A stretch of DNA of 63,143 nt, counting the filler. It is 9 parts of 9 records of this genome, joined end to end, with 100 filler letters (N's around TTAATTAATTAA, not from the genome) between each part and the next. Parts side by side here need not be neighbours in the genome. Positions count along the whole stretch, not along the records: positions 53,923 to 58,545 come from SRR15195285_1725; 8 more parts are not named here. One strand, written 5' to 3'. The position numbers and the translations under genes are program-made. Every line of letters starts with the position of its first letter. Positions within the stretch are counted from its first letter, which is position 1. A model generated the notes under the pieces. It was not told where the DNA came from. It saw nothing but the letters and a program-made list of their open reading frames with translations, and ran no database searches. Shown here one piece after another: positions 6,528 through 58,645 of the stretch.

Positions 6528-6667
6528 CGCCGCGAGTGCCGGTGCGCGCCGGGTGGACGCGTTTCTGGCTCTATATCTCCTCTCGCGGCGTGCATATGCG
6601 CGCGCGCTTTTCGACCTCTCTGCGTATGCACGTCCCTCTGCCGATTGCATGTTAAGTGACGCCGGCA

Positions 6668-6767
6668 NNNNNNNNNNNNNNNNNNNNNNNNNNNNNNNNN
6701 NNNNNNNNNNNTTAATTAATTAANNNNNNNNNNNNNNNNNNNNNNNNNNNNNNNNNNNNNNNNNNNN
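6668..6767. other. Artificial contig spacer
   Basis: N44-TTAATTAATTAA-N44 (stops in all six frames). Confidence 0.99.
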
Positions 6768-9700: not shown

Positions 9701-12700
9701 CTGGATGAGGTGGCTCTGAGTAAGGCTTGGGATCGGGAACATATCGGATGACCATGAGTTCGCTTTCCGTCGCAGCCAGCCTGCGCCGCCCTTGTCGGCA
9801 CCGATCAGTAAAAACATCGCCATTAGCTGCACTGAGTGTGGTGCAATCTTGTCGCCCTTATTGGAACCGCTGGCGGAAGCGCTAACACTCCACACAGCAC
9901 AAATCCCGCCGATCAATTTCGGTATGCTCTTCTCTTGATCGTAGACCAGGCACACCTCTTTGGCCATCGCGATGTAGGTCGCCGCATCACTTCCCCAAGC
10001 GTATTTTTGGTCGTCGACGAGCCTTTCCCACTCGGCTTTTGCGCCTTCCAGATGCTCCCGCAGATGATTCTGTTGACTCTTCGACAACTGGTTGAGGTCT
10101 TTGATAGCATCGAGCTGCTGAGCGTCAGACACAACCGCCATCCGCTGCTTTCTAGCCCTGATTTTAGCGATCATGAATTCAGGAAACGAGTCCGTGTCGT
10201 TGACGATCTCGGGACCGTTGCCAGTGTCAGACATCAAGGCTTCACCGAGAGCGCTAAAGTCGAAAGCAGACAGCCGCGCTGCGTCCGTGGTCGCACGTTG
10301 TCGATCAGCTTCGGAGCGTTCCAAGCAGTACTTCACAACCTTGCCCATATGTGCCAAGGCGTGCTCCCGAACGTTTGGGTTGCCGATTTGGGAGGGCAAC
10401 TGATAGATGTGTATCAGCGCTCGCGCAACTTCTGCAGGCCGGAAGGCGTGAGGATCGTCGTGCATCTTCTCTAGTTCTTTGGCGATGACATCTTCGGTGT
10501 ACTTCATCATCACAACCTCCAACTGCCTCTCGCCATACTGCTCAAAGAGCTGCGCGTAGTGAGCTATTTGCTTCAGTGGTGAATCTTCAGCCAGCCGAAG
10601 CAGCTCCATTAGACGGTTTGTCTCAACAAACGACCCATGGTCGGAGTGGCACTCTTGATTGTACGTGGTCTGTAGTTTTTCAGCGTGCAGCTTGAATCGC
10701 TTTGATGCTTGAACGTTGTCCGATTGAGTTGCCTTGCAGGCCCGCTCAGCAATTCCGCAACCGATTTCGCCGCACACCTGGATAGATGCACACTTCTCCA
10801 GTGCGGTGAGCAACTTTTCAATGCGCGCGTAGCCCTCCGGCTCTGGGTATTGTGTGGCCCAGACAGAGGATAGCTCGGTTGTGACATCGGTGATCTGCTT
10901 CTCAAAAGCATCGTTTACTTTCCCGAGAGCCACTCCTTGTCTGGCGAACACCAAGCCCCTCCTGCCAGCGAAGAACATCTTCTTTTCGTTCAAGTATTGC
11001 ATGTCGGCGTTGACGGTTGCTGCATCGAAGGTGTCGGCCTTTATGTCGGTGGCCACTAGGCGTTCGAAAGCTTCCTTGATTTTCTGATGGACCTGTTCAT
11101 CGTCCTTGAACCGCTGCTCTGCGTCCTCGATGGCCTTCTCCACAAATTCAATCAGATTGTCCAGAGCTCTATGCTCAGAGAGTTCAGGCTCGAAATCGAG
11201 TGCGGGTGTTGCTGTACGTTCGACGTCAACCGCACGGTCTTCGCCGGTGATTCTGCGACGAGCACCGCGCAAATGCTCCAACGCATTCTCTTCAAGCACT
11301 GGGCAGGCTTCACGCAAAATGGCCTCCGTCTTGGATTGCAGTGTAGTATCGTGCGTCAGCTGAGCGTCTTCTGCTTGCTCACAAGCTTTATGGATTCTCT
11401 GAACAAGCGCCTGCACAATCGAGTGGTACAAGCTAGTGACACCAGCAGCACCGTAAGCCATCAGCCGAGCTTCGATCGTGGCCAGCTCTTTCAGTGCCGT
11501 GTCGCATTTGATTCGAATCGTATCGGTCGTACACAGAGAGTCCGATTCCAACTCGGTCCTGATCTCGTCGTACCTGAGCGGGAGCTGCCTGTTGATAAAT
11601 CGGTTCAATTGCCCTCGGAATCTCGTCGCAGCAGTTGCCTGAAAGTCTGCCAGAGTATCATTCACTCTTCTCGCGTCAGCGCTGGTCAGCTCGCTCACAG
11701 TGAAAATGCTAAATGTCTGGACAAGGCAGTCGCGCTTGATCCGTTGGAGATCTTCGATTTCGCAGTGCCCCTGCAGGACTTCAGTGTATATGTCCAGGTC
11801 TCGCTGAAAACGCTCGAGCTTCTCTGTAGCCTCCTCCAAGAGCACATAGTCATCGGCCGCATGTTTGTGCTCTTGGGCCAGACCTCTCTGGTACACCGTG
11901 AGACCCTCGTAGAAACTTAACTGGGTGGACTCGAACTCATCGGGGAGAATGGCTTTGTAGCCGTCTAAGGCTCTCCTGACGACAGACTTGTCAGAAGTCA
12001 CCTTGAGACCTAAGAACTTGGCTTCACCAGACACTGTGCTGAACATGAAGATTTGGTCCGTCCTCGTCTTCAGTTTCTTGTCTAGACGTTGACACTCCTC
12101 GTGCAGGTCGACCTCCCTCTTTGCGTGCTCCGACTTCTTCATGTCTTTCAGTCGCTTGATGAGGTCGTGAGCGAGGCACAAGTCACGACGATCGAGAGCC
12201 TTATCACACCTCTGTACCAAGTCCTCGAGCGTCTGCTTCAGCTGCGTTCTACAGTTGGCAGCGGCTAAGTCGTCGATGAGAAGCGCCTCGTCCTCTGCAC
12301 GCTTCAACCCAGCAAGAATGCGGTCCACCTCGTCGGGATCCTTGCGCGCTACTGCGTCAGCTACCACAACATGTGCGTCACGAAGCTGACGTTCGATGCA
12401 TTCAGTCAATTGACCGTGCACCGCCATGAAGGGATCCATAGCGGCCTGCTCTGGACTGTCCAATAGTGGTCGCGGTGGTGTCACAGCCCGTGGTGGCGTC
12501 GAAGCCCTCGGCGGTGTCGCAGCTCTCGGTGGGATATCACATGAAGACCCACTGTCCGCAAATTCCTCTGCCAGCCCGCGCACCTGAGCCTGAATCTCTT
12601 GCTCGCGTTCACAAACGTCCTGATAAGCTCCTGAGTTCTGAAGTAATTTGGGCTCATCGACAGTAAAGCCCTTGCTGCTTGATTTCCAAAGCGTACTCAC

Positions 12701-15700
12701 TGTCGCATCGGCAGGCTTGATCCAATGAGTATTACTACCAATCAGACTCCTCTCGAAGCGTTCATACGTCCCGCTGCCGTACCCACTGACAATGACAGCC
12801 ACACCCTTCATCAGTGGCTCATCGTCTTCACGGGCATCCTCTTGAGAGCGCACAGAGGCCACTGCACGCTCCTCACAATGTCTCTTCTCGGCTAGGATCT
12901 GCTCCAGTTGACGCTGGAGATCTGCGTGCTTTTGCTGCTGTTGCTTCCACTCCTGCTCGAGCTGCAGTTCTCGCTGCCTTAGCTCCTCTTGCTTGCGGTC
13001 GCGCAGCGCTTGTTCTTCCTGGAGTTGCTGTTCACGCGCTGCCTTCTCTGCCACTTGCTCTCCGGCGCTTGCCATCTCGGTCAGAGGAAATCCGATGAAC
13101 TGCTGCAGATTGTCGAGGCCGTCGAACGCAGGAACGATCTTCCACTGGCGAAGCGGTTTCTCGATATTAGACTTCATCCTCTGGAGCAGTGTCTGTACTG
13201 ACCGCTCCAAACTGTTCACAAATGCAGCGTACTGGCCATCAGGAAGCAGCTCAGAGAGTGGCTCCGCATCCTTGATCATCTGCATCTGATCCTTCGTCCT
13301 TTGGAGCAGACCACCATCCATGGCTTGTGACGTACCACGTCCCTTCAGTGTCCCAACTGCACTGTCCAGGGACTTCTTTGATTCTCGGTACGCCGTGTGA
13401 AGGTGCTCGCAGATGTGTTGCTGTACTTGCGAGAAGTTGTCCGCTCCAGGTCCAATGCGAACGGCGCCGTCCATGCGCCTCGCAACTTCAACATAGTTTT
13501 TCCTCTCAAAAAGTCCGACGGTGGTTTGCACAAACGCGTCGCGCTTCGATACAAGTTCACGTATCATCTTCTCGTACTCCAGCTCCACGGCTTCTACATA
13601 CCCTCGCAGGTTCTGCATATTCATGACGATAGTCTGCACTTGCTCAGCGTCTGCAATGTTCTGCTCCGCAATCGCCTGCCAAAATTTGCCCACCTGGCCC
13701 GATGGGTCTCGGTCTTGCCCTCCCTGCTGCCCTAGAAACTCCTTGGTATCAGCCAGGAGCTGCTCGGTCGCAACCTGGTAGCACTCACTGGCCACCTTGT
13801 TGAGGGGCTCGCAAGCAGCAAAACTATTGAGAACGCCCTCCACCCGCTGGAATGCCTTGTCTGGTAGCTCTAGAGCCTCTGCTTCGAGGCAGCTCTGACC
13901 AATCGACAGCTGCTCGCTGCAAACTTGAGCGAGGGAGTCGGGCGTTCCCGTAACAGTGTCAACAACAGTACTCAGTAGCGAGTTCACAGATACTTCGAAA
14001 GCGTCTGTGTCCCCAGTGAACGTCAAGATCATGCCGTCTGATTGAGTCTCCACCTGGGTCTGCTCGACAAGTTCGCGCAGCTGCAGCTCGTACTTCTGCA
14101 AGAGTGCGTGCAAGTAGATCACACGCGGGACTTGTTCACGGTTCAGGGTCTCCGTGGTCAACGAAGCACACTCACTGCACACGCCTGCCACGAAGCTTTC
14201 CACTCTTCCCCATAGCGCAATCGCGTGCTCCTCGATGCCTTTGCGGGATGCATCTGAAGCATCGCCTCCGCATTCGTGAGTCGGAGTCACGTGGCCGCTC
14301 AGGTACTTTCTCATGAACATGACTTGTCGCACCATTTCGACGACAGTCTCCGGGCCGAGCTGCTGCGCCTCCTCGAGGTCATCCGAGCACGACTCGAGGC
14401 ATTTAATCACCAACGTCCACATCGACCACGCAGTAGTGTCCAGCTGGTTGCACAGGTCGGCATATCGGCTACGGTAGGTGGCCACAGAGGCCTCTGATAT
14501 GATACCCTCCATGTGCTCTGTTGCCTCGTGGATCTGGTCTGCCATTGTACGGAGGTCCTGAAAGTCACGTTCGCGGAATACAGGTCGCGGCTGTCCGTCA
14601 GTACCAGCGGATACAGTGGCATTGGCGTCCTGAATGAGGGAATTCACACGTTCCGCAATAGTAACTTTCTTCAGCCCTCGCTTGTGGTGGATGTTGCCAG
14701 TGGGATCCAAGCTCTCCAAACATGCAGCGATGTTCATGTGAGCGGCAAGTTCGGCGAAGTTCCTCTCGTGCAGCGAACTGTCCACGGAAGCGAAACACTC
14801 GTCGCTCGCGCGGTCCAGCTGCCTGTCGCAGTTTGCTGAGAGTTCGGAGAACAACACCTCGGGGGAGTACTTGCGAGAGAGATGTATATGCATGTGCTCG
14901 GTTGCGGATCGAATTGTGGAAAAGTTGCTTTCCAATTGTGGCTGTGTGTCGGGTAGACCATGTAGGTGGTCTGGCACAGAGTCAAACGCTGCACGTAGGG
15001 GCAACTCTAACTGCGCGATCCGTTTCTCGTAATGGTCCGTCTCGTCGAGGTGGTCTTGCAGCTTAGAAGTCAGCTCTTGTAGGAGACTTAAGTTGTCTCC
15101 GAGGGTCACATTGAATTCCTTGTGTTTCAGCGCGTGGTCAATGCGCTTGCAGACGACAGCGTCACGGAATTGCCTCACCACACCAACAGAGGTTTCGTAG
15201 CAGTCCCGGTCTGCAAGAAAGGGTGTCTCTTTGGAGCAGAAGTGCTGCGTCAGATGCTGCAACGCGTCCAAGTGGTGACACAAGTCGGTAACATTATCGA
15301 AGGTGGCCGAAACGGTTAGATCATCGGCCGTCATGGTCTTGACTTTGCTAGTCAACGAGCTGGCTCGCGAATTGATTCCATTGAGCAGTTCCTGCCATAT
15401 TTCTTTGAAGCATTCAGCTGGACGACCTTGAAGTTGCATTGGATCTGCTTGGAGCAACACCCCCGCGTCGTCAGTCTGACCTGCTGTTGCTGTCGCCTCG
15501 GTGATCAACCGAGCTTCGTGAACAATCGCATCGAAGTCCAGATGCTCTGCAACATCTCCGTACCGCTGAATTGCCTTCATGTGGTGCGCCACCTTTGCGA
15601 AGCGGTCTGCGGCCTGCGACAGGTCCGGCTCGTTGATAGCGCGGCTTGCCTGGTCCGCGTTGTCCTGGAAGAAGCTGCAGATCGCCTGATTGCTGGCGGA

Positions 15701-17389
15701 GTAGCTGGCTTGTACGTCGGCTACATCTAGCGAATCCCTGAGGATTTTGAGCACGCGGACGTCTGCGGCAATGAACCGGTTCAGGCAGCGCTCACCGTGC
15801 AACTGGTCTGAAATGCTCGCCTCAAGGTTCTTGCAAGCTGACACGAGCCGCACGCTGGCACTGTCAGCGATCGGAGAGTCCAGCGAGGCAGTGACATCCT
15901 CGATGGGAGGGATGTCGTTGCACAGCTTGTCGAGCAGTGCTTTGTGGTCATCTGGCTTCTCGTCAGGCTTGAAAATCACAAGTTCCTTGTACTTCCTCAG
16001 CTGGGCAATCATATGCTCGAGAATCTTGGTGATGGTTGGGTTGCTGGCGACGTCCTTCTGCCTGCTTAAGCCTTGCAACGTCTTCCTGATATGATGTGCC
16101 TGATCGCCGGGGTCACAGTGGCTGTACAGGATGAGTACCGACATCAGGGCAACGTCAATCACCTTCAGCGTGTGTGACATCATCTTCAGATGCTCAACCA
16201 GGTCCGCGCATTTGTTATGTATCAGCGTTTTTTCGTTGCCCTTCAGAACCCAGACGATCCTCGCACTGGCCAACGTCAGCAGCAGCCTCTTGATGGTGAT
16301 CGAGTTGGCGACATCAATCGTGGCATCGTTGATTCGCTGGCAGTCGGTGGCTCCGCAACCTTTGCACAGCTCCTCGTGGAACGCTGTCGTACACTCCCTA
16401 CAGAAGTTGAGCCCGCCAGAGTTGCGTTGACCCGGGATGTCATACGCGTGCAAAGAAGAGTTCTGAATGCGCCTGCTTTCGATCGCGCTGGTGCAAGAAC
16501 GGAAACGGCTCGTTCCGATTTCAACCACAGCGTCTGGGCCGTCGACCTGCAATACTTCCCTATACGACGGTGGGTCATCTGGATCGGTATCCTCTGTTGG
16601 CTCGTCCTTTACTGTCCGCTTCACAATGCGTTGGCCGTTGATCCAACAAATGAACGTGGATTTGCCGACGCCTGTATTGCCGATCATCAAAGAGGCGTGG
16701 CGCGGCTCCGTGTCTCCGTGATCCTCGAGCTCGCACGCGGCTTCTTGCACCAGATCAGCAACGATCTGGACATCAACGTCATCGGCCCTCGAATCGTCCT
16801 TCATCTGGGCCTCGTCCCTCATGAACACATCAACGACCTTCTTGGAAGTATACACGGGGGTCTCGTCGGTCATGGGAGTTGAGGCCGGCGGCGGCGTCAC
16901 TGGCACCGACGCAGGACTAGGCACGTCGACGCCAACCTGTCCATCGTTGGGCTGCGGCTGTGGCTCCGGCTGCGGCTCCGGCTGTGGTTCGGGTTCGGGC
17001 TGCGGCTGCGGAACTGGTTCGTTGTTGGTACTGGCGGCATTGGACGCGACTCCGGGCGACTGCGACTGTGAATCCTCCTGCGTGGACTGCGTCTCCCACA
17101 TGTGGGCCACAGAGTTGTGGGCCACAGAGTTGATCTGTGATTCAAGCCGCCGCCGCGGATCCAGCTGTGCATTCACTGGAGATTCAGATGGTGGAGGCAC
17201 AGCTGCCTCCTCGTCCGGGGAGTCCGGGGCTCCGTCCACTGGACCAGATGATGGAGTCGTCGCTCTCGGACCAGATGATGGAGTCACAGGCCCAGAAGCG
17301 CACGGGGCCGCGATTGCCTGCTCGAGCGCAGTGGCCGGACGTGGAACTCCTTCCGATTCAGTCTCCTGCCTCGACATCTGAGCAGCCAT
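6768..17389 (-). CDS. Giant protein (>3500 aa): P-loop GTPase + long helical region + SecA-like SF2 ATPase + vWA with YfaP/DUF2135-like insert; 3' end truncated at the contig break
   Basis: GNTGVGKST and DIPG (G1/G3). QVGTGEGKS, LLIDEVD, GVTGTL, PVLVFFE, FGRGIDF, GGVHVIQTF, QIMGRTARQ (SecA-type motifs). VVFLID...WLIVLSD (vWA). ISLMWD..TDLDLYV...LDVD...VENVF...PGQY (YfaP-like). Ends in EPEPEP at the gap. Confidence 0.85.
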
Positions 17390-17426
17390 GATGAGATCGA
17401 TGAGCGCTGCCTTGGGGTTGTCGGCC

Positions 17427-17526
17427 NNNNNNNNNNNNNNNNNNNNNNNNNNNNNNNNNNNNNNNNNNNNTTAATTAATTAANNNNNNNNNNNNNNNNNN
17501 NNNNNNNNNNNNNNNNNNNNNNNNNN
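17427..17526. other. Artificial contig spacer
   Basis: N44-TTAATTAATTAA-N44. Confidence 0.99.
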
Positions 17527-30931: not shown

Positions 30932-31119
30932 CTCCTCAGAGAGCACTCCGCCAGTACTTCCGCTCCTTTAGCACTCATTTGGCATCGCACAGTGCCGAAG
31001 TACTGAGCTGGTTGTCAGTCAGTCCGGACTGGGATGGCGGGGCTACTAATACTCTCCTTAGCATTTTTTCAGCTTGAGAGTGTGTTGCGGGGCGCTTGCT
31101 CTTACCAGTCTTCTTGCAG

Positions 31120-34100
31120 TCACTGGATCAACGAGGGTTGTTGTTGGTCGGAGCAGGGACCGGCTTCAGTGCACTGAAGACGAAAAAGTGGCAGCGGCGA
31201 TACTTCAGGCTGGCAGAGGGCATGCTGCGCTGGGCGCACAGCCCGGAGACGATCGACGACGAGTCCCCTGCGCAGGTGTCGCTAGGCGGTGCGCGGATTG
31301 TGCACGTCGGTGAGTCGCTGGAGTTCAAGCTCATCCCGTCGAGGGACGTAGAGCGGGCCAGCGCGAAGGTCCGCGCGGAGTACGAGCTGCGAGCTACGAA
31401 CGCATACGCGGCGTCTCGCTGGAGCAACCTGATCGACCGCTCCATCCAGCAGCTGCAGTGGCGCGCGGACATTGAGTCTTCGGGGGTGTTCTCCAACCGC
31501 AAACCGGATGCAGTGGACATGACGATCGGCACGCCTGTTAGACCATTTCCTCTCGATGCCAACTCAAGCGTTGCAAGCCTCGCCAGCGTGGCGAGCACTG
31601 ATGATCTAAGAACACCCGGCTCGTCCCGGCCGCCCGACTCCCCAGGCTCAGCGGCCGCTAGCGTGCATGCGCGTGCCGCTGTTGCGGCTGCTCAGGTCCA
31701 TCCATCCTCGCCACTTCCTGCAGACTCTGAGCCCGACGGGGCTGGTCTGACGAGACGTCTTGCCGCCGGTGAAACCGAGCCGATCTGTGCTGTGGCCGGC
31801 AAGCTGCAGGCGTACGAGAATTCCAAGTACTTATCCGCCGCCACATCATTTGACCTCCTTGATGTCGAGAGGAGAATGTTGAAGGCGGCCGACGTGCACG
31901 AAAGAAAAGGATATTTGGGCAGGCAGTACTTCCGGCGGCTGTTTCTGTTCAATGACTCGCTCCTCGTCGTGAGACCGTACTCGGATGACATGTACCAGTT
32001 CCAGTCACTTTTTTCGCTGGAGGAAATCACGTTGGCACACACAAGTGACGAGCAACATCTGGAGGTGGGACGCACGGCTGCGTCCGGCGAGCAAGAGCAG
32101 TGGCACCTATTCTTTGAGTCCGCAGCAGCAGCTGATGAGTGGTATACGACGATAACCAGCGTGGCTCGACGGCGGAGATGTAGCTCCAGAATGTCTGCTC
32201 CGCCGCCAACTCCTGGCTCAAGCCAGGAGCTGGTTGCCAGGACAATCGAATTCGACCAGGACGAAGATGAGACGTGCAGAGTAATATCAGGAAACCTTGA
32301 GCTGCTGGTTCAGGGCTCAGACCAATGGCACAAAGTTTTCGCCCACGCCAGGAACGGTCACCTGCATTTCTATAGCGACTCCAGCAAATGCCCTTTCCCG
32401 ACCGCAGCTGTCGATGCTCCCCCCGCGTCGCCGATTAGTGCTCTTTCACAACGGCAGTCTGACGAGTTGACTCTAGAGGAGCGGCTCCAGCAGCAAGGTT
32501 TGTCAGCGGCATTTGTTGCTGCAATCTGTGGCACGGTCACGCTTGAGGACATAAGAATTTATTGCGAGGACACTGAGTACTGGGAACAGCTAAGGCTTGT
32601 TGACCCACTGAGTTCGAATCTGAGCGGTATGGATGAAGAGTGGAGTGCATTTGCAGCATCATTTGATGCAATCCTAACTGCGGAGCCCGCACCTCTGGAA
32701 CCACTCGCGTCCCCGACTCACACCAGGCAGGCGTCAAGTCACGCTCTGCTCAAGCTCGGAGCGACCTTATCCAGCATGGGACTCGAGCAGCAATCGAGCG
32801 CGGTAGTCGAGTGTGTGCTCCGTGACGACCCCGAAGACCCGATGGCACTGCAGATTCGCGACGAGCTAGCTGCACGCGGGCATCCGGTGGTGCTCTCCAT
32901 AAATCTGGGAGAGCTGATTGGACTTGAGATGATCGAGTTCTCGCTTGCAGTCGCTCACGATCAGCAGATTACGATTCGACACGAAGAGCTGGGAGTATTC
33001 AGGCTGAAACCAACCTCAGGAAGTCTTGACCAGTGGTACATACAGCTGCAGCAGATATGGCTGGAGTTTGTAGCTCTACTTGGCACACCCAAATATGAGC
33101 ACTGGGTGACGATGTCGCAAACAACATCAAAGCTAGTGCTTGCATACAAAGAGAGCGCTGAGCTTGTCGGCTCGTGCACTCCAGGGGCGAAACATGACAA
33201 GCAAGTGGCATCTGAACGGTCCAGATGTGTGGAAGAAAAGTTTCAAGCGGCGTTTCGACGAGTAGATCCTAGACAGGACGCAACTAGGTGGCGCAAGTGG
33301 ATCGCCACTAAACCACAGGCGGCCATCAAGCAGGCAGACAATTTGATGGAGGACCTTGCTCTTGGGATGGCGCAAGCTGGTAGGAATTTAGAGATTATTG
33401 AGTGGTATGCAACTGAGTTCTACAAACGATTTCATCAGATGTTGCGTGCATTTGGTATGGGCGTCGGAGAGGACCGGCGTACGAGATCGTGCGAATCGGT
33501 CGAATCAGAAGAAGCTGGCCTGGACTGTTCGGTTGCTAGCTCGGTAGCTCTGGACGAACTACAGACAGCAGATGCAATGGCGATTATTGGCTGGTGCCGG
33601 CGATTCAAACAGCGATGTGTTGGGATGCGCATCCCGGACGGGTTGTTTGAAGAGGATCCAACGGACAGTGGGCTCTTCCGCGGGCTTGTAAATGCACACA
33701 TGCCCTCTTACCAAGGTTTTCTCAAGAAGAAAGGTGGGTATCACAGCGGCGGTGCTGTAAAAAGCATGGGCCTCAATGGGTGGCAGAAGCGATACTTTTG
33801 CCTGCAAAACGCAACTCTACGCTACTACAAGACGAAGCAGATGCTCGGTGAACGCGGCAGTATACCCGCAGAGGAAATCACAGATCTTACAATGAACGAT
33901 CAGACCATCAGAATTACTGAGTCTGGGCGGGTGCTGGAGTTGTACGCTCCTTCACCTGAAGAGGCGAGTGTGTGGTGTGATCGCTTGACCAAAGCGCGTG
34001 CAGCAGCTCAGGCGATGGAAGAGTTGTCGAGTGCATCCACTACATGCATCGAGGTACAGGCATTCGACGGCCAACAGCAAGTGGTAGCACATTCCATTGC

Positions 34101-37100
34101 TCGCAACTGCCAGGAACGATTCGACGAAGCAAATGAGAAACTGCAGCTGCATCTGTTGAACCACGACGACACAGCAATTGTAGACTCCTCAGCAATCCAG
34201 GCAGAGCTGTTTATGAAAGCAGCAGATGCACTGCTTGAGGCTTGCTCTGATCGATTGCGACGAGTCCCAACAGACCGTACCGATGTAAAAACCTTCTACG
34301 CGCTCGAGTATCACCACAATATTTGTCGCCAAATGAGAACAATTAGAGGCTTGGGGGTATGGCCAGCGGTGAGCGTCTGTCGCTTGATGTTTTGGGCGCG
34401 CGAGCACGATCAAACGATTGCCAGGTTGATCGGTCAAGTGCTGACCGCTGTTGACAAACCTCTTGCTCGTAGCGCAGAGTGGGAGGAAGATCTCAAAGGT
34501 TTTTCGAAACACCCACTACCAAGGTTCAGTGGGTGGCTCACAAGACAGCGGTGGGAAGACCACGAGTGGGAGAAAAACTACGTCGTGATTGAGAACATGT
34601 GTGTCACGTGGTATGAAGTTGAGGGAGTCCAAAATACCGCACGAGATTCTGAACCGGAGCCCGAGCCTGAACTTGAGCGTGAAAATGCTGCACCGACATT
34701 GACTGAGCTCATGGCTAGCCTAAAAGAGCTGGAGGACATCATGATGGAGAAAGACGACTCAGACCCGGGCATGGAAAAGCTGCAGGCCTCTGCCAACGAG
34801 GTAAGGGAAGAAATCTCCGCAGCTGAGCACCACTTGAAGGTCCAAGGCACCCTCAGTCTTTCGGAGACGACGCGAGTCAAATCCAGCATGATTCGAGATT
34901 CAGCAGCGCCTTCGGCTGATGTCAAGATAAGCTCGGTAGATGCAAGCGTGTACTTGAAGGTTCCGAGAGAGCTCATGCCCGAGCTGATGGAGTGTCTGAA
35001 TCAATCGTGTTACCCATCACTGCCTGGTCAGTCTCGAGATCGAGCTCTCAGCGCCGGCGATGCCGCCAATACAGCTGGAGCCAAGATTGTTGCGGACTAC
35101 CACGCGAAATCTCGTGAGGAGCTTACTGCCGAAATTGCAGATCAGTTCCGAGAGGCGTTTGCTGCAGAGGGTGAGCAGCTGACCAGGTCAGCAACTGGTA
35201 CAGTTGATCTCGACGCGGTCCTATCAGTCTTCTCTGTCATGCTGGAGCAGCTGGTGGAGGTAGTTGACGAGGTATTGTTCAGTGGGCTCATTGAGGAAGA
35301 GATCATAAACTTCAATATCGAAAAGCGCCACGAGCAATTCGTGGAATACTTCACGAATCTTTGCGATCCGGAGAAGGAACTGTTTCCAGGCTCAGATCTG
35401 AATATTACTGTGACTCAGACCGACATCGTGCCACTTCTGAGGTGGGCGGCGGAATATCACGCTTGTGTGGACTCGATTGGTCTGCAGAATGCGGACGTGA
35501 AGCCGCTGTACGTATGCTGCAGACCGCCAATGGCAGACCACATTGCTTCCACAAGGAAAGTATTCGAGACTTGGTGTAGCAAGTGGTTGCCGCCAATGTC
35601 AATCCAAACAAAGGTGGAGACAGTGCGACAACAGAGGAACGGACAGTACATCAGCTCACTACCAACTGACCTTTTCCGCTTGATCTGCGATGCTACACGG
35701 AGAGCCTCGGACTCTTCATGCGAGCGACTACTGGTCCATACCGTGATGGGCGTGATTGAGCCTCAGGTGCGATTTTGGGCGGCAAGCTTCGCGGATATGT
35801 TGTCTCCAGAGGATCCCCACGGCGAGCTCAAGCAGTGCTTTCCTTGTCAGGGTATCTCGTACAAGGAGTATTTATGTGCGTGTTTGAACAATATGGACAT
35901 CTGTTACCGCAACACTGCGTCCTGGTCTGAGGACGTAGAGGAGCGGATTGAGTCTAAAGATATGATGCAGATGGTTGGAGCCGATGATGAGTTCGGCACG
36001 ATGAACACCGATCGGCTAAGCGATTCCTTCCAGCAGATCAGCAACGCCGCGGTGGCATGTTTGTGCAACCTTATTATGGCTGAGATTGAGCCAGAGCTGC
36101 AGAGCATATCGAGAGCAGACTGGCTCACGCATAACAAGATGATCCCGATGCTCGACTCACTCGCGTCGTGGTGCACTAATTTGGAAGAGGTTTTGGCGAA
36201 GCGCTACTCTAAGAAAGTGATCAGTACTCTGATGAGCACGATGATTGAGCGCTATGTCAAGCAGCTACTCCAACTGGCACGCACACCCAAAGAGAAGAAG
36301 CGAGCGAGGCAGGGAAATGGCCTCACGCACAAGGACTTTTCAGCAGCCATGCAGGAGGACATCGGCAAGCTCAAGAAATTCTTTGGCACCTACCTAAAAG
36401 ACACGGCCGTTCGGGCAGCTCTGCTGAGTGCAGAAGTTGTGGCACAACTCCACGGGTGCGAGCTCGAAAGCTTTGTGGCAGAGTGCACAAAGGCTGCATA
36501 TCACCCAGAATTTAGCATAAAAGAGGTAGAGCTGGTTCTCAATGCACGAGAGGATGTCACTCCGCACGACAAGAAGAGACTGATTGCTGAGGCAAATGAT
36601 TCAATAGCGATGATCAAGGAGGCGCTCAATCCGGCTGCACCGCCTCGTGCTAGCGCGCCTGAGGCTGTCAGCGCGCAGCCTGTTGCGGCTTTTGCTGCTG
36701 GTACAGTTCCAATGTCCCCACCTCCGATTCCAGATACACCAGGCAAGACTGTGAGTCTTGAAAAGACTCAGAGCAGACAGCCAAAGCGCAGAGTACAAGC
36801 TCTACACGCGTTTACCGCAATGCAGGCAGATGACCTATCTTTCATGCCAGGGGCAGTCATCGTAGTGACGGACTCAAGTAAGCCGTGGTGGGAAGGCTAC
36901 GTCGAGCGGGTGAGGCTTGTGTCCATGATAGCCCTGATCTAGTTGTGCCAAGCGTGTGGAATTGTGACAACTGTCTAACTATTGCGCTGGACATATGGTG
37001 CTCACTCACTCGTGCTGCTCTTCATCCAGCTTGGTGACGGAACTCCCATCACGCCGGTTGATGTCGAGACGCGGGTCGGCACCTTCCCTCCAAACTTTGT

Positions 37101-51133: not shown

Positions 51134-53607
51134 TCAGAAGCGGCCTTCTTTCACGCGCTTCGCCTTCTTCGCCTGTTCTTTCGCCATGTTCTCGGCCATC
51201 TGTCCAGTCAGTCAGTCAGTCAGTCAGTTAGTAGTCAGTCAGTCAGTCAGGGAAGGCGATTCACAACAACTGCTTGGCACGCTGGTTCTTACCGCCTGCT
51301 CAACCTTCTGGTGCTTTGAAGCAGCCTCCTCTTCGCTGTCTTGCTTCACCGTTGCAGGCCGCGGCATCGATGCTTCTGCGATATCTGGGCCGTTCACAGC
51401 TTCCCCGCTCTGCTTTGCCACTTGCAGCGCCACGAAGACACGAATGTTCGTGTGCAGCTGGGCTGCTTGCTCTGGCGGCAGGTCTCCGGTGTCACGAATG
51501 GTCGCTAGGACATCGGGTACGGCTCCCTCCACATACTGCACAAGCTCAGAGTCGGCCCTGGATGCAAACCAGCCATGTTGATCCAAAACAAAGCGTCTGA
51601 GTGGCACTGCTAGGATTTGCACGACGGACATTTGCATGTGTGTGTGCGCGCGCGCGTGCGTGCATTTGTGAGTAAGCTGCGCACCCTCCCCGAAGTACAG
51701 ACAAAGGCGCGCAGCGCTGCGCATCACTTGCCGCTGACGAGAAGTACCTGCACACATCACAAAGCGCAAAGCAAATTACACGCGCACTCGCTGCCAAGCA
51801 TGCAGCTGGATGCTGGGATTACCCTTTTGAAACTGCGAATAGCAGCACCACTGCGTGTTCCAAGGAGAGTGGTTGGGCTGGTGGCTGGCGCAACACAGCC
51901 TGCCATGCGGCGAGCTGCGCCCGCATCGCGCGCGTCTCTGGCCGAGCGCTTTCCTTTGCCTCAGTCGAGAGGTCAGCATATGCTGACATCAGGAATCGTA
52001 GCTTGTTGCCAACTTCTTGCAGCGCCGAGCTCCGGGTGTCGCGAATCCTTGTCAGGGATCTGGAGAACACGGCGAACCGCAGCAGTGGCTCTCAGATAAG
52101 TCGGCTGCGGACTAATCGGCCATACTCGACCTACTGGGGAGCAAGCGCGTGAGTGCGTGTGTGCGTACGTGGTCGGGCTGATGGCAGGCAGTTGCGCCTC
52201 TGCGCCATCAGACCGCAAAAACTCGTCAGCGTCTAGCAGTATGTGCCCGTCAGACAGGGACATCATCTCTTCAGTGTGCCTGCGCTGCGGTGAGACGGGT
52301 GCTCCCCTGGCCTCAGCATTTGCACTAGTATGTGTGCCTTGTGGATCCTCGTCGGCACTGGCCGATTGCAGCTCTACCTCTGGTATTGGCAAGTGCATCT
52401 TCTTCAGTACTTCATCCGTGATCGGGACATTGTACGCTGATAGTTTTCCCAACCGAGCCAAAGCGTCAGCTGCGTACCCTTCTTCCTCAAAGACGGAGAG
52501 CGGATATCCGCTCTCAGCGGTCGGCCGTTCGCTAGCTTCATCCTCACAGCGCGTGACCTCGGCTGCAACCAGTGTCAGGACAGACATGGAGCCCGCGTCT
52601 GCAAGCTTCGCGGACCGCTGAAGCAGAGCCGAGTAGTACGGCCGCAGCTCCGTGATCTCATGCTGACCGCTAAGGTAGCGCAGCCGAGGGTCATATGACG
52701 CGGACAGCTCTGCGGCGGTCTGCCACAGGTTGCGGAACGCTGACAGTTCGTCGAGAATGACAAGCGAGTCGTGGCCTCCGTCACGGTACGCCTCTCCAAT
52801 GGCGACAGCAGTCGCTGCGGCGAAGTACCGCTCAATCGAGGGCAGCATTGCTGCAGCGCCCGTGACACGCGGCGCGAGCGAGATGACGGGCACTCCGAGC
52901 GACTCGAGGGCGCGCACGCCATCGTCGTCCGAGATGCATCCGTAGATGGTGTGCAGTGGGGGAGTCCCTGGGAGTCGGCTGGCCTGGACTGCGCCGGTAG
53001 CTATGGTCGTCTTGCCTGCGCCATCCGGCCCGACTAGAAGCATCGACTGGCCACGCCCCACGGGCGTGAGGGCGTCGATCGCGAGCCACCCAGTGTGCAG
53101 GTTGTCCATGATTAGCCCACGCTGTGATCCAGATGGCTGGTTTGCGAAGACCGGCACGGTGATCTCGCTCTGGGAGAACGGCGCGCCGCCGTCTAGCGGC
53201 CTCGCAAAGCAGTCCACCTGCCGCCCAACCATCTCCTCGCGCGGTGGTAAGCCGATCGAGAGGACATCCGGTGTGGGCACGCAGCCCTGCCCACACAGCG
53301 CGTCGTAGCCCTCGTCATCCGTGCGCTCCAGCAGCGTCGCAAAGTAGTGGCCGTGCTGCTGGAATAGCACGCAGGCCTTCTGCTCGTCCTCTCCCACCGC
53401 CATAATCCTCCCTGTGGGGAGGTCGAGCAGGTTGCTCTCCAGCATGAGTAAGCCGCGCGTCGCACCAACAACAACGATCGGCGGACGGTGCGCCTCTTTT
53501 GCGGGCGGTCCGTCGCACAGGCAGCGCCTGTGCCTGCGTCGCAAGGGCAGGGAGCTGCGAAACGACGCACTCGGCCGTCGACGCAGCGCCGTACCGACAC
53601 CACGCAT
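51134..53607 (-). CDS. Divergent F1-ATPase alpha-subunit-like protein with a predicted mitochondrial presequence; multi-exon
   Basis: Arg/Ser-rich N-terminus; VGRQVDCFARPLDG, LHTGWLAIDALTPVGRGQ, GPDGAGKT (Walker A), GEAYRDGGHDSLVILDELS, YSALLQRSAKL, SLSDGHILLD, PAIS..SLTRI. Confidence 0.8.
51205..51250 (+). repeat. (CAGT)n tetranucleotide microsatellite within an intron
   Basis: cagtcagtcagtcagtcagtcagttagtagtcagtcagtcagtcag. Confidence 0.95.
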
Positions 53608-53740
53608 ACTACTGCCCCACCTACTACAGCCCACACTGCAGCCCTCGACAAGCAAGCCGACGCCACAAGGCAAGGTCCCCTGCACGGCTTGCGGAGCACA
53701 AACAGCTCGCCGAGAAGCGCCTCTCTGTCTCTCTCCGTCC

Positions 53741-53811
53741 CTCACCACGCACTGTATGGGCCACACCACCCTCTTTGTCTCTCACCACGCACTGTATGGT
53801 CCCCACCACCT
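53741..53811 (+). repeat. 40-bp-period tandem repeat at the contig end
   Basis: CTCACCACGCACTGTATGGxCCxCACCACC at 53741 and 53781. Confidence 0.9.
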
Positions 53812-53822
53812 CCTACAAGCCG

Positions 53823-53922
53823 NNNNNNNNNNNNNNNNNNNNNNNNNNNNNNNNNNNNNNNNNNNNTTAATTAATTAANNNNNNNNNNNNNNNNNNNNNN
53901 NNNNNNNNNNNNNNNNNNNNNN
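53823..53922. other. Artificial contig spacer
   Basis: N44-TTAATTAATTAA-N44. Confidence 0.99.
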
Positions 53923-53942
53923 GCCAGTATGAAGGCAGGTGC

Positions 53943-56900
53943 ATGGAGAGAAGGGAAGAAGTTGAGCAGAGTCACAGAAACGTCAAGGCCTTCAAGCGAA
54001 CGCCAGCACAATGGCTCCCACGCTTACGCGCGTCGATGTCGCCACCTGCTATCGGTGAATCTGGTATGCACGCCTGTGCTAGTGAGATGGACAACGTCCT
54101 AGCGGAAGCGGAAACTTCCTTTGAGCAGCAAGAAGACATATGGCAGAAGCTGCAAGCGCGCCAACGTCTGGCCAAAGACGGCGACATCCGAAGAGAATAT
54201 TTGGCACAGAAAGCTCAACTGGAAGCTGCCCATTGGGAGCGGCTGGCAGGAGACTGTCAGGAAGACATGCAGCTTGCGCTGAAACTTGATCGCGAGGAAA
54301 AGCAGCAGGCAGCCGCGGCAAAGAAGAGACAAGAGGAGGAGGACGAAGCCATGGCCAAGAGATGCCAGGAGGAGCACGATAAGGTCGCGACAACGGAGCG
54401 AGCTCGGATGCAAGAGGCGGAGCAGAAATCTGTGGCAGTCGTGAAAGCGCTTCAATGTGGTCGGCCGAAGCGAAAGGCTAGCGCCGTTATCGACATCGGC
54501 GTTGAACAAAGCACGACGAGTAGTAGCGATGACGATGATGACGATGATGACCATCTTTCTGCCGCCATTCGGATAGTGCCACTGCGGCCGAAGGCAAAAC
54601 GGCAACGCTCAGCATCGCCTCGTGAGATCCAACTGCCAGCTTCTGCAGCACAAGCGTCTGTATCGCGAACCGCGGCCGCTGCTCCAGCTATGTGCCGCAA
54701 GGAAGATGCGTCGGTAGCGCAAGCCACCGGCGTCCATTCTGTGCACCACAGGCATTCTGAGGGTGGCAGGTCGAGTCGACCGCGGGCTCCAGCTATCAAC
54801 GAAAACATCAAAGACCGAGGAATCCGTCTTGTGCTGGACAGACAGACAGAATGGCATCGGGCAGTTTTGGTCGACTGGGCGAAAGGCACAATCAAGCCAG
54901 GTGAGCCGCGCGCAGGCGATCGTTTGATAGACCACCGATGGGCTGTATGTTCTATGATTTTGACGGAGAAGATAGAAGAACCTGCTGATCTGTTGGTGCA
55001 GTTATCAGACGAAAAGTATGGACGCAAGTGGGCATGGGAAGAGGATGAAAGGTTTGACGAGGGTTACCAGCAGCGTCAGCAGGAAAATTTTATCCGAAGC
55101 GAGTTCTACTGCCCTGCTATTGCGTACACACTGTGGCGAAAGCTGAAGCAGCTGCAATTATTCTGGGCACACGAAACCTTTCGAATTGAGGACTTCATCG
55201 CTAATCACAGCAGGTTTGCAGACGAGTGGCCGCTAATTGTGCGGAGTGTCTTGAAGGATCTTCTGCGCGACCACTTTCTGATGGAAGCAAAAACGATGAC
55301 CAAATTTGATGGAACTGTGTCGCTGACACTCAGCGATGTCCGCTTGGACACTGAGCAATTCAAGGGCGTGTTCTCAGTTGCAGACGGTTGGACAATTTGG
55401 AAAGTCAGTGATTTGACTCGGCTGATGAAAGACGTGGCGAGTCGCATTGACGGCCCGTTTGTGCAGTGGCCTGAAGGCGGAGTGGAGAGATGGATCAGTA
55501 CGCTAGAAGCTGATGTGCACTATGATGTGGAACAGCACAATGGCCACGCCCACTCGAAATGCTGCAGTGGCTGTCTGAAAGCTGCTGAGCCAGATGGGAC
55601 ACCGATTGATCTCTGTGTTCATCCGATGTTCGACAACCTGTTCATGTGTGATGGGCCTGAAGGCTGCAAGAACAACTATGAAAACGAAGAGAACTGGTTA
55701 GTTTCTGGAGATGGCGAAGAGGCTTGCAGATGCTGCGGTTACGAACATGAGTATATGCCACTCGTACGATGTGATGCTTGCACGGCCTGTTTCTGTCATG
55801 GCTGCATCAATGGGCAATGTCCAAACTACGGAGCTGCCGAGTTCAAGGCTATTGAAGAAAGTGCTGACGCGGCAAATGCTCCGCCGTGGCTCTGTTTTCT
55901 TTGCCGGCCTCAGAACCTGTCTGTGTTAAAGGTTAACAAACAGGCGTTGCAGCGATTCCGTAGCAAAGAGGCAGATCAGAGGCCGTCGCGCCGAGCCAGT
56001 GTGTTGCGATCACCGCAGAAGGTATATCTCCGACTGGATGTCGACACCGATAGTGGTGACGACAGCGACGATGAGGAGGTTGTATATGGAAGTGAACCAT
56101 CTGAGTCGGACGGCGATGATAATGGTGTTGACAGTGATCAGAACGAAGAGGTAGCGGCCGCTAGACCACGGCGGAGGTCTACCGGAGGTCGTGCTCGCAG
56201 AACTGGTGGGCAAAGGAGACAGGTGAGAAGACAGGTACCGAGTCGCGTGTTCGAGCGAAATATTGAGCACTGGAGACTGCGCTCGCGTCATGAGCCATAC
56301 ATTCTTATCGAAAACGTCAAGGGTATGTCGACAGGGGACAGGAAGACCATACAGCAGACGCTTCATCTTGACATGACTGTGATTGATTCTGTGAGATTCT
56401 CTTTTGCAACACGAAAGAGGCTGTACTTTGGCAACTTTGATTGCCTAAGTGAGAGCGAGCTTCCTGCACTTGACGGCTCACCAGTGATGTCGAAGGAGTT
56501 GGAGACAGCCATTCCTGATCAGGCTGAGATGCGGGCTTACTTCGACGAGAGTCGAACTATCGACTCTCGTTTCATTGAGACTGACGCGCCTAGCCACAAC
56601 GCCACCCCATGGGACAAGACCCTGTGCATTATGCCAGACAAAGGTGAGGACCTCGTCATGGCGGGCTTGAATGACAAGTTGCGGGCCATTGCTCGGTCTG
56701 GATTTGACAGCACGCAAGTTCCGAAGCTAAATCAGGAGGATGTGAAGAAGATGAGGAAGTACAACATGATTTTCTACAAGGACGACGGAGTACCCTATTT
56801 GCAGTTAAGGCTGCTTACAGTAAGAAAACCACCCTTGTCGCGCGGTTGCAATTGTAGTACCGGTATCAGATTGGCACACCTCGGTGGCGCACACATGCCC

Positions 56901-57873
56901 GTGCCCGTGCTTTTCCGTGCCTTAACGTATCCCCATCGATGTCTATGGATCAGCTTGCAGAGCGCGAGAATGGCATGGGCTTCGAACCGCTACCAAACGG
57001 CAAACTGTGGACGCATGCGGCGAGGTGAGTAGCCTACATTGGATCAATGTTTTTGTACGTTTAGCTGCAGCTTCAGGCTTTCTAAGCACTACAGCAGAGA
57101 CGTGAAAAACTGCATCCATACGCGGACACAATTCACGTGGAGCGGCTGAATGCAAATTGACAGATCGGAAAAGGTCGCGCGAAGCCAGCTCGGGGATTCA
57201 TTCGAGGTGCGAACGATTTGCTGGCGGCTACAGAAGATTCATGCGGAGCTGTCCGAACGTTGTAGGCGGGAGCAGCGGCCTTTGCGTGTTCTTTCTATTT
57301 GCGATGGGATTGCGGGCTGTCTCGCCGCCTTAAACCGTGAGGCCCCGCCTACCCACCCTCCTTCTCCACACAGCAGGAAGATTTGGCCAATTCCGACCGT
57401 GCTGTGATTTCCGACCGTGCGCTGATTTGACAGGGCTGGGTGGTTTCGACGAATATGGCATCACGTACATAGCGATAGAGAAGAATAGAGACGCGAGGCG
57501 GGTGGTGGAGTGCAACTGCGATCTGTTGCCGTGGGTTAAGCTGATCCACATCCCACAGTGTAGTGATGCCGAGAACAAACGAGATTGTTCCCCAGGCTGT
57601 CACTGTGGCGACCTCCTTTCGATGCGTGCTCACGATAAATGTGGTCTAAACGACGGCCCCACGCTGCTTTCGTACTTGGAGAACTACAGTAAGGGCACCA
57701 TAGATCTCTGCATGACTGGATATCCTTGCAAAGGGCACAGTTCAGCGAACCGGCAAGGGCAAGGCAATCGGAATCGGGCAGGGCGGACTGGTCATGACAG
57801 TGTTCAGTCGGGGGACACATGGTGGGCGGTTCTATACATGCTACAAGTGCTGTGTTACACACATGACGCATAA
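53943..57873 (+). CDS. ADD-domain C5 DNA methyltransferase with a DRM-type circularly permuted catalytic domain, four exons
   Basis: ADD at about 55560-55910 (CSGC..CVHPMF..MC..CK..CRCC..CDAC..CFC..CI..WLCFLCRP). Motif VI IENV; VIII TRKRLYFGN; IX RLLT|LAERENGMGF; X SQLGDSFEVRTI; I LRVLSICDGIAG; II IAIEKN; IV IDLCMTGYPC. GT-AG introns at 56820-56953, 57025-57163 and 57337-57433 all preserve the frame. Confidence 0.88.
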
Positions 57874-58545
57874 GGGCGATAAACCCCGCGTTCCGAGGAG
57901 GGCGATGGTTAGGTTGCGACGGCGTTTGGGGCGGCAAACGACGATGCAGAGCGCGGCAGCTGGCGCAATCAACGCAGCACGGGCCAGGGCGTTAATGCAG
58001 CGTTGTGTGGAGTGTGGTAACGTCGAAATGGAATTGTGTTTCTTGCATTGTTGTGGTTGCACCACCCATTGACCAGCTGTTGATATTTTGCTATTCGGTA
58101 GCTCCGGGATGTCGTCTGTCGCTCTAGATTGGCAGACGAAACAGTACCAGTCAGCTTGCGGGTGGGAATGTTCGGAATGTGGTCAATGTGCAGTTCTTCG
58201 CTCACAATTTAACAAGCTGGTCGTAGTTTGATCAGGGAGGCGCGCCAGAAGGTCACAACGCGAAAAGACGACGGTGTCATGCACATGTGCCAGGACCACT
58301 TTGAATTCATGAAATAATACCGCCACAATAGCTAGTACGAGCTAGAATAAAGAAACGTTCTAGCTAGAATGATTGGATGCACATCATGCATCTCGTCCAT
58401 GAGTCGAATACCACCTATCGGGTCGCCCAGTACATAGAAACCACGGTCGAGCGCGACAAAAAGGGGGGTTTCGTGGTGTTGCCCCTCGGCACCGAGTTGG
58501 ACCGGCTCGATCGGCCCGCCCGGTACCCACAACCCCGCCAGCGCA

Positions 58546-58645
58546 NNNNNNNNNNNNNNNNNNNNNNNNNNNNNNNNNNNNNNNNNNNNTTAATTAATTA
58601 ANNNNNNNNNNNNNNNNNNNNNNNNNNNNNNNNNNNNNNNNNNNN
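58546..58645. other. Artificial contig spacer
   Basis: N44-TTAATTAATTAA-N44. Confidence 0.99.

Follow-up and report, generated by a model that had tools for sequence, protein, structure and literature searches.

The locus analyzed here raises the question of whether a marine microbial eukaryote has combined, in a single protein, the ADD domain of animal DNMT3 enzymes with a catalytic domain permuted as in the plant DOMAINS REARRANGED METHYLTRANSFERASES (DRM; AtDRM2 and NtDRM; PDB 7l4c/f/h/n and 4onj/4onq). The window, that is, the whole stretch of DNA analyzed (63,143 nucleotides [nt]), consists of nine contigs joined artificially, and the gene in question lies on the plus strand of one 4.6-kb contig at window positions 53923 to 58546. 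It is quite probably a genuine nuclear gene that belongs to an uncultured marine eukaryote and encodes a large cytosine-5 (C5) DNA methyltransferase with several domains, a member of the DNMT3/DRM superfamily. At full length, the protein has no fewer than about 1490 amino acids (aa) and consists of a RING finger, a charged coiled coil, a beta-barrel followed by helices, an ADD domain, an acidic/basic linker, and a permuted catalytic domain.

Gene model and introns

The gene is divided into four exons and three introns as follows.

53923 to 56819, plus strand: exon 1, open at the 5' edge of the contig (the open reading frame [ORF] at 53871 to 57032 is open through the N run)
56820 to 56953, plus strand: intron 1, 134 nt, GTAAG..CAG; the junction restores LRLLT/LAERE as in the homologues P0024, P0038, and P0026
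56954 to 57024, plus strand: exon 2 with motif IX, from the homologue alignment
57025 to 57163, plus strand: intron 2, 139 nt, GTGAG..ACAG
57164 to 57336, plus strand: exon 3 with motif X, the junction helix, and motif I, colinear with the X-to-I junction of DRM
57337 to 57433, plus strand: intron 3, 97 nt, GTGAG..ACAG
57434 to 57873, plus strand: exon 4 with motifs II and IV, a motif-V-like helix, and the stop codon TAA (57871 to 57873)

All three introns are of the GT..AG type, and none of their lengths is divisible by 3. Splicing them out yields a 3561-nt frame that encodes 1186 aa with a single terminal stop and no internal stop. The initial annotation, made from the sequence alone, had joined the coding pieces by three introns into one protein, and homology establishes this joining, since single blastp high-scoring segment pairs with three uninterrupted homologous ORFs between them bridge all three junctions: P0026 (51% identity over window aa 765 to 1151, E = 8e-124), P0039 (41% over aa 872 to 1180), and P0038 (60% over aa 934 to 1092). 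Intron 1, in contrast, had to be corrected to 56820 to 56953. The homologues P0024, P0026, and P0038 read LRLLT(V/L)AERE..GFP, which places the intron 1 acceptor at 56952 to 56953; candidate acceptors at 56857 and 56869 are ruled out by the same reading. A 6-nt deletion at 56857, within intron 1, is seen in other runs, and a 6-nt in-frame insertion behind 56162 occurs in the contigs of runs X1 and X7.

The gene models of the relatives P0001, P0003, and P0033 run through the intron 1 donor and then break off. In the homologue locus of the P0031 lineage (L001), no interruption is found at any of the three intron sites of the window gene, and L001 has its own 58-nt GT-AG intron (L001 positions 1300 to 1357) past the motif IV region, where the window gene has none. 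Removing this intron gives the conserved C terminus ..GRTGHDSERSGDTWW.., with a stop a few residues on, and the C termini of the automatic models P0010, P0026, P0027, P0030, and P0031 are therefore wrong and mutually different. Lineage-specific introns within a conserved frame fit a nuclear gene family. In the independent DNA run X1, a single Logan contig spans 54637 to 58124, and therefore the contiguity of the gene is independent of the assembly of the window.

Order and conservation of the catalytic motifs

The catalytic domain of the spliced protein carries the following elements.

56304 to 56318, plus strand: motif VI, LIENV, with the catalytic Glu, aa 788 (aligned to motif VI of DNMT3B)
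56412 to 56426, plus strand: motif VIII, RKRLY (RxR), aa 824 (aligned to DNMT3B)
56445 to 56792, plus strand: target-recognition region (TRD) between VIII and IX, colinear in HMMER with the TRD of DRM2 and NtDRM
56975 to 56986, plus strand: motif IX, MGFE, aa 967
57189 to 57203, plus strand: motif X, LGDSF, aa 992
57291 to 57317, plus strand: motif I, LSICDGIAG, aa 1026
57469 to 57483, plus strand: motif II, IAIEK, aa 1053
57718 to 57744, plus strand: motif IV, GYPCKGHSS, aa 1136, with the catalytic Cys codon at 57727 to 57729
from 57790, plus strand: motif-V-like helix, GHDSVQSGDTW, aa 1160 (the protein ends at aa 1186)

The order in the spliced protein is thus ADD, VI, VIII, TRD, IX, X, I, II, IV, V, and stop, and both the positions and the order of the motifs are those that the initial annotation had given. 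The C-terminal GHDS.QSG..W helix is kept in P0038, P0039, and, after its 58-nt intron, L001. Conservation was counted in 37 family sequences, many of which are fragments or models ending early: ENV is present in 18 of the 37, RxR in 22, motif X in 10, and GYPCKGHSS in 8. The catalytic Cys, Glu, and RxR are intact in the window protein, as had been claimed, and alignments A5 and A7 show the PC Cys, ENV Glu, RxR, motif II Glu, and motif III Asp in all lineages whose sequence extends that far. The replacement of Phe by Cys in the motif I loop, which had been noted in this one gene, is a trait of the whole family, with Cys in nine and Phe in none of the 37 sequences.

The permutation relative to DNMT3 is evident even without knowledge of the motifs, because P0026 matches DNMT3A in swapped order: its residues 274 to 322 (motifs I and II) align with chain positions 5 to 53, residues 383 to 408 (motif IV) with 73 to 98, and residues 24 to 75 (motifs VI to VIII) with 121 to 173. 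Plant DRM, in contrast, is colinear with the family. With profile A1, plant DRM is the first match (NtDRM, E = 8e-6; AtDRM2, E = 9e-6 to 4e-5), in a single colinear HMMER stretch that leads from the TRD by way of IX and X across the junction into motif I, whereas DNMT3B, DNMT3A, and DNMT3C match this profile in motifs VI to VIII only, from E = 5e-3. The fuller profile A5 matches DNMT3A with 34.9 bits (E = 9e-8) in swapped pieces and DRM2 with 33.8 bits (E = 1.9e-7) in a single stretch, profile positions 23 to 277 on chain positions 34 to 252. By these sequence scores, the family is about equally distant from DRM and DNMT3, nearer DNMT3 in VI to VIII and nearer DRM in the TRD, IX, and X.

The catalytic fold was predicted for P0026, which is 51% identical to the window protein. 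In a Foldseek search with this model, all eight matches at E ≤ 1e-3 belong to catalytic domains of DRM (375 to 426 columns, E = 6e-11 to 5e-9), and the next match follows at E = 9e-3. A sequence search of the PDB with exon 4 by itself gave only an irrelevant match at E = 0.23. By VIA-align, the model superposes on DRM with Z of 16.5 to 17.6 over 274 to 287 residues, from model residue 9 to 398; on DNMT3A and DNMT3B it reaches Z of 4.4 to 5.0 over 152 to 165 residues, which lie within its first 271 to 277 residues. The topology and the V/VI breakpoint are therefore those of DRM, in agreement with the DRM-type arrangement first proposed.

The family thus shares with plant DRM the motif order VI to X followed by I to V, the break between V and VI, structural colinearity over the full domain, and the presence of the catalytic residues. 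It differs in that DRM chains have Phe in motif I and PCN where the family has Cys and PCK, in an X-to-I linker that is seven residues longer, and in the front end, where DRM has UBA domains and the family a RING, a beta-barrel/helical domain, and an ADD; DRM is also a streptophyte enzyme, whereas the family is that of a marine protist. With animal DNMT3A, DNMT3B, and DNMT3L it shares an ADD placed N-terminal to the methyltransferase domain and a motif-level likeness in I and II, IV, and VI to VIII, but the canonical I-to-X order of DNMT3 aligns with only half of the permuted domain, and DNMT3 lacks the RING that is found in P0001 and P0033.

ADD domain and the domain preceding it

The region in front of the catalytic domain is composed of the following features.

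53943 to 54794, plus strand: charged, probably coiled-coil, acidic region, aa 1 to 284 (translation; Pfam gives only sub-threshold noise)
54795 to 55532, plus strand: conserved domain of unassigned family, a five-strand beta-barrel and then helices, aa 285 to 530
55563 to 55934, plus strand: ADD domain (GATA-like and PHD zinc fingers), aa 541 to 664, from profile and fold matches
55935 to 56270, plus strand: acidic and then basic low-complexity linker from the ADD to the catalytic domain (translation; variable in alignment A3)

The ADD, which had been recognized from its residues alone, has its landmarks HPMF at aa 560 and WLCFLC at aa 649, and both profile and fold comparisons demonstrate it. 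The family profile A3 matches the ATRX ADD over its full length, both Cys clusters included (E = 1.6e-16, 63.8 bits), and also the ADDs of DNMT3B (E = 2.3e-11), DNMT3L (3.9e-9), and DNMT3A (8.5e-9). Exon 1 alone matches DNMT3B at E = 4.5e-4, with motifs VI to VIII driving the score, and the ATRX ADD at E = 0.7. In the AlphaFold2 model of window aa 285 to 670 (pLDDT 69.9), the ADD superposes on that of DNMT3A with Z of 10.5 (root mean square deviation 2.6 Å, 115 residues), on DNMT3L with 10.2, on DNMT3B with 9.7, and on ATRX with 7.4. ATRX is thus the best sequence match of the family ADD but scores below the DNMT3 ADDs in structure; it is an SNF2 remodeller that is not known to carry a methyltransferase. 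Of 13 family members, 5 match the Pfam family DNMT3_ADD_GATA1-like (best E = 0.0018) and 1 matches ADD_ATRX, and no Pfam ADD family matches the ADD piece of the window itself.

The preceding domain has 24 invariant columns, many of them Trp, in alignment A6, and no sequence-level match in the PDB. In the same model its barrel is formed by strands 8 to 13, 20 to 28, 49 to 54, 65 to 69, and 81 to 83, and it resembles chromo-barrel, PWWP, Tudor, and Agenet folds with Z of 5.0 to 5.7 (PWWP, 5.5), a range that the tool itself calls common. The top Foldseek matches of the aa 285 to 670 model are DNMT3A2 chains, over 383 to 390 columns (E = 1e-4), and ADD-only chains follow over about 145 to 150 columns (E = 6e-3). 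These model-based comparisons hint that the barrel may occupy a PWWP-like position before the ADD.

5' end and RING finger

The ATG at 53943, which had been taken as the gene start, is an internal Met. No stop interrupts the frame up to the contig edge at 53923, and the relative P0001 (1365 aa), which is 99% identical over the part searched and 95% over the 998 columns that take in an extra 36-aa repeat, aligns to the window protein from its residue 301, so that its frame continues for 300 residues upstream. A second DNA contig of X1 also reaches 723 nt past the 5' edge of the gene's contig. Within the additional part, Pfam identifies a C3HC4 RING finger in P0001 (aa 224 to 266, 30.5 bits) and in the 62%-identical P0033 (aa 218 to 260, 31 bits), against a cut-off of 21, and in both the RING shares a single ORF with the remainder of the protein. 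Both automatic models end within intron 1 and so lack motifs IX to V. No UBA family is among the Pfam matches of P0001 and P0033, which at E ≤ 0.1 are RING families only, or among those of window exon 1. The upstream RING, the beta-barrel and helical domain before the ADD, and the 5' truncation of the contig were all absent from the initial annotation.

The extra 36-aa tandem repeat of P0001 falls in the charged coiled-coil region (window 54300 to 54420); together with the small in-frame indels noted above, which P0001 likewise has, it represents either population variation or a collapsed repeat.

The combination of a RING with histone-reader modules and the machinery of DNA methylation is also known from UHRF1/ORTH (RING, Tudor, and PHD) and DNMT5 (RING, SNF2, and methyltransferase), to which the family is likened by domain content only. 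UHRF1 has no methyltransferase domain, and in DNMT5 the methyltransferase domain is unpermuted and accompanied by an SNF2 ATPase. For microeukaryotic DNMT enzymes, the Fig. 1b legend of PMC9998398 includes a RING in its list of domains.

Family, distribution, and host

The family is tiny: among 1.84 billion representatives, scanned exhaustively with HMMER, 24 proteins match at E ≤ 1e-3, 14 of them at E ≤ 1e-10 and 7 at E ≤ 1e-30. The ADD and the permuted methyltransferase are found in several lineages: that of the window gene and P0033, P0005 with P0038 (on one contig), P0002, and P0013/P0014. Of the ten clusters looked up, all but one are environmental; the exception is an 86-aa fragment that bears the label Picozoa in EukProt, and its 54% identity to the window protein over 78 aa is too weak to name the host. 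A search with profile A1 at E ≤ 10 gave four proteins, all of the family itself, and a metagenome locus search with A7 gave two short loci only. None of 56 candidate stretches of viral contigs encodes a relative.

The stretch of the gene is present, at half of its words or more, in 13 marine or seawater metagenome runs (rows from 15 studies), which excludes the plant contamination that had been considered at the outset. An ERG24 fragment on another contig of the window has environmental matches of 75 to 85% identity, and its named matches examined, of 41 to 47% identity, are scattered over choanoflagellates, an oomycete, a chytrid, and a dinoflagellate.

Origin of the permutation

Two accounts of the permuted domain are to be weighed; the initial annotation had likewise offered a choice, between an ancestral DRM that retained its ADD and an independent permutation. 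Bacterial circularly permuted C5-methyltransferases, such as M.BssHII, show that the C5-methyltransferase fold tolerates circular permutation; enzymes of this type have a different breakpoint, are prokaryotic, and are not known to carry chromatin domains.

The permutation may have arisen independently of plant DRM, from a DNMT3-like gene that carried or acquired an ADD, with the likeness to DRM being convergent, and we regard the chances of this account as evenly poised. It could have proceeded by tandem duplication and then trimming at the natural V/VI domain boundary. It fits the nearly equal A5 scores of DNMT3A and DRM2, the VI-to-VIII piece, which scores 19.7 bits with DNMT3B versus 3.1 bits with DRM2, and the behavior of P0026 alone, whose matches up to E = 10 include DNMT3A and DNMT3B but no DRM. 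Nor are the N-terminal domains related to the UBA domains of DRM, and DRM is confined to streptophytes according to statements in PMC12344493. On the other side stand breakpoints that are the same as in DRM, with the new N terminus about 25 residues before ENV and the C terminus after the motif-V helix, a TRD-IX-X part that matches DRM in a single stretch with 22 to 24 bits whereas the IX-X piece of DNMT3A scores -1.2 bits, and the string LGNSFQVDT that is common to P0013 and DRM chains.

These latter features would be explained if one permutation event gave rise to both the family and plant DRM, through a common ancestor or because the catalytic module was transferred, with the ADD and UBA front ends swapped later, an account that we hold only tentatively. 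In its transfer variant, the module would have passed between a protist lineage and the streptophyte stem. It is in line with sequence and structure matches that are colinear with DRM only and with a DRM-specific similarity of the TRD; the nearest ESM Atlas feature cluster, which is eukaryotic PF00145 with Streptophyta commonest (score 0.97), points the same way as a lead only. However, any permutation at the same boundary would give colinearity, and the identity to DRM is only 18 to 24% (20 to 24% in structural alignments) versus 17 to 21% for DNMT3. Taken further, the shared event would mean that the DRM-type permutation was not invented by streptophytes, and that the protist family and plant DRM go back, through an older common ancestor or a transfer, to a permuted enzyme guided by a histone-reading ADD, in place of which plants later adopted UBA domains and RNA-directed targeting; this fuller scenario is possible but somewhat doubtful.

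Predicted function and alternative readings

Several observations weigh against reading the locus as an intact gene for a RING- and ADD-bearing permuted methyltransferase. No splice joint is found in the contigs of three RNA-labelled runs (X7, X16, and X15) or of DNA run X1, and RNA-run contigs cover the introns unspliced, those of X7 at 56827 to 57102 and 57084 to 57413, those of X15 at 56983 to 57133 and 57168 to 57413, and that of X16 at 57238 to 57388. The unspliced contigs may reflect DNA carry-over, and because the contigs are of low depth and DNA is possibly present, the RNA data neither support nor exclude the splicing that had been predicted. The catalytic AlphaFold2 model is that of the homologue P0026 and not of the window protein, with a pLDDT of 60.4 and a pTM of 0.62, and the RING lies outside the window, upstream of the gene's contig. 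The usual Phe is missing from motif I, and the residue after the catalytic PC is Lys. The four exon pieces of the window have no Pfam DNA_methylase or ADD match at E ≤ 1 (the range used for exon 2 was off the final model), and P0026 reaches only 13 bits against a PF00145 cut-off of 22.

On the residues that it retains, the protein is nevertheless fairly likely to be catalytically active as a C5 DNA methyltransferase. The GYPCK Cys would serve as the nucleophile toward C6, the flipped cytosine would be gripped by the ENV Glu together with the RxR, and motifs I to III would bind S-adenosylmethionine (SAM) despite the Cys in place of the motif I Phe. By analogy with DNMT3 and ATRX, there is about an even chance that the ADD docks on the N-terminal tail of H3, and this docking would guide and perhaps gate de novo methylation by the enzyme. 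The RING is predicted from its sequence and may or may not, with equal likelihood, add ubiquitin-ligase activity to the chromatin-bound protein.

It is unlikely that the protein is a regulator without catalytic activity, comparable to DRM3 or DNMT3L, in which the ADD and RING would act on chromatin and the methyltransferase fold would serve only as a partner surface. The Cys at the place of the SAM-stacking Phe, the Lys after PC, and the sub-threshold score with the Pfam DNA_methylase model would suit such a protein. However, the catalytic residues, which DRM3 and DNMT3L have lost, persist here in all lineages that reach them, as is not expected of a dead paralogue, and the Cys and Lys substitutions are family-wide and therefore selected rather than a sign of decay. 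Less probable still is that the locus is a pseudogene or yields a product ending in intron 1 (RING, ADD, and half a methyltransferase, as in P0001), which would agree with the unspliced RNA-run contigs and the read-through models P0001, P0003, and P0033, since these models stem from intron-blind gene calling, the downstream exons are 41 to 60% identical to distant lineages and in frame only after GT-AG removal, and the motif-bearing exons have no stop or frameshift.

Relation to published surveys

The reading as an ADD-bearing, DRM-type permuted enzyme runs counter to three statements made in parts of recent surveys: that DRM is restricted to streptophytes (PMC12344493), that protist and algal DNMT3s have no companion domains (PMC12344493), with microalgal DNMT3s likewise said to lack chromatin domains (PMC9998398), and that PWWP and ADD were gained by DNMT3 in animals, as an animal innovation (PMC11244446). 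DRMs are also described as plant specific, with a rearranged DNMT3 domain (PMC6453930). Our literature search found no description of an ADD- or RING-bearing permuted DNMT; the supplementary tables of the surveys, which lay outside this search, could list such sequences. Within the survey text that the search covered, the combination of an ADD with a DRM-type permutation is assigned to no group, and the family adds a new architecture to the DNMT3/DRM superfamily. Its escape from the Pfam DNA_methylase and ADD models could explain why surveys based on Pfam and hidden Markov models would miss it.

The family may be a missing link for the origin of DRM or a striking convergence, and if the permutation event was shared, the coupling of an ADD with a DNMT3-type enzyme would also be older or recurrent, beyond animals. 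It offers a natural test of whether gating by an ADD can operate on a permuted catalytic domain, and one polypeptide joins modules whose predicted roles are those of a RING-type ubiquitin ligase, of histone readers, and of a de novo methyltransferase. The presence of such an enzyme predicts 5-methylcytosine in an abundant, uncultured marine protist lineage.

Other features of the window

Eight linkers, each consisting of an N run, TTAATTAATTAA, and a second N run, separate the nine contigs, and flanking genes are therefore no genomic neighbors and synteny across contigs is meaningless. The linkers and the contig of the gene are placed as follows.

6712, 17471, 22216, 30848, 40306, 48697, 53867, and 58590: artificial linkers
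53923 to 58546: gene-bearing contig, bounded by linkers at 53867 to 53878 and 58590 to 58601 with their N runs
58418 to 58546: repeat at the 3' end of the gene's contig, outside the gene, from summed contig depth

The summed contig depth over the 3'-end repeat is 140 in X7, 42.5 in X16, and 179 in X1, versus about 2 to 9 elsewhere, with many differing loose ends, and this repeat probably explains where the assembly of the contig stops. The end of the preceding contig holds two copies of a direct repeat of about 40 bases (..ctctcaccacgcactgtatgg..) at 53730 to 53810, and the same adjoining contig carries, at 51973 to 53781 on the minus strand, a 602-aa ORF with a weak ATP-synt_ab nucleotide-binding match (E = 5.6e-14), on the basis of which it is a putative divergent ATPase alpha/beta-like protein. 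An Rfam scan of the window gave no family at threshold.

The other contigs of the window encode ordinary eukaryotic domains, namely, Sec6, PH, SH3, Patched/SSD, ERG4/24, JmjC, and GH3. An open frame of 3584 aa at 6716 to 17470 on the minus strand takes up an entire contig; no Pfam family matches it at E ≤ 1e-5. Two further large ORFs are free of introns, one at 1953 to 6719 on the minus strand with AMP-binding and NAD_binding_4 domains in a carboxylate-reductase-like architecture and the other at 31078 to 36942 on the plus strand, which encodes a 1954-aa PH/Sec6/SH3 protein, and the genes of the host organism seem to be intron-poor.

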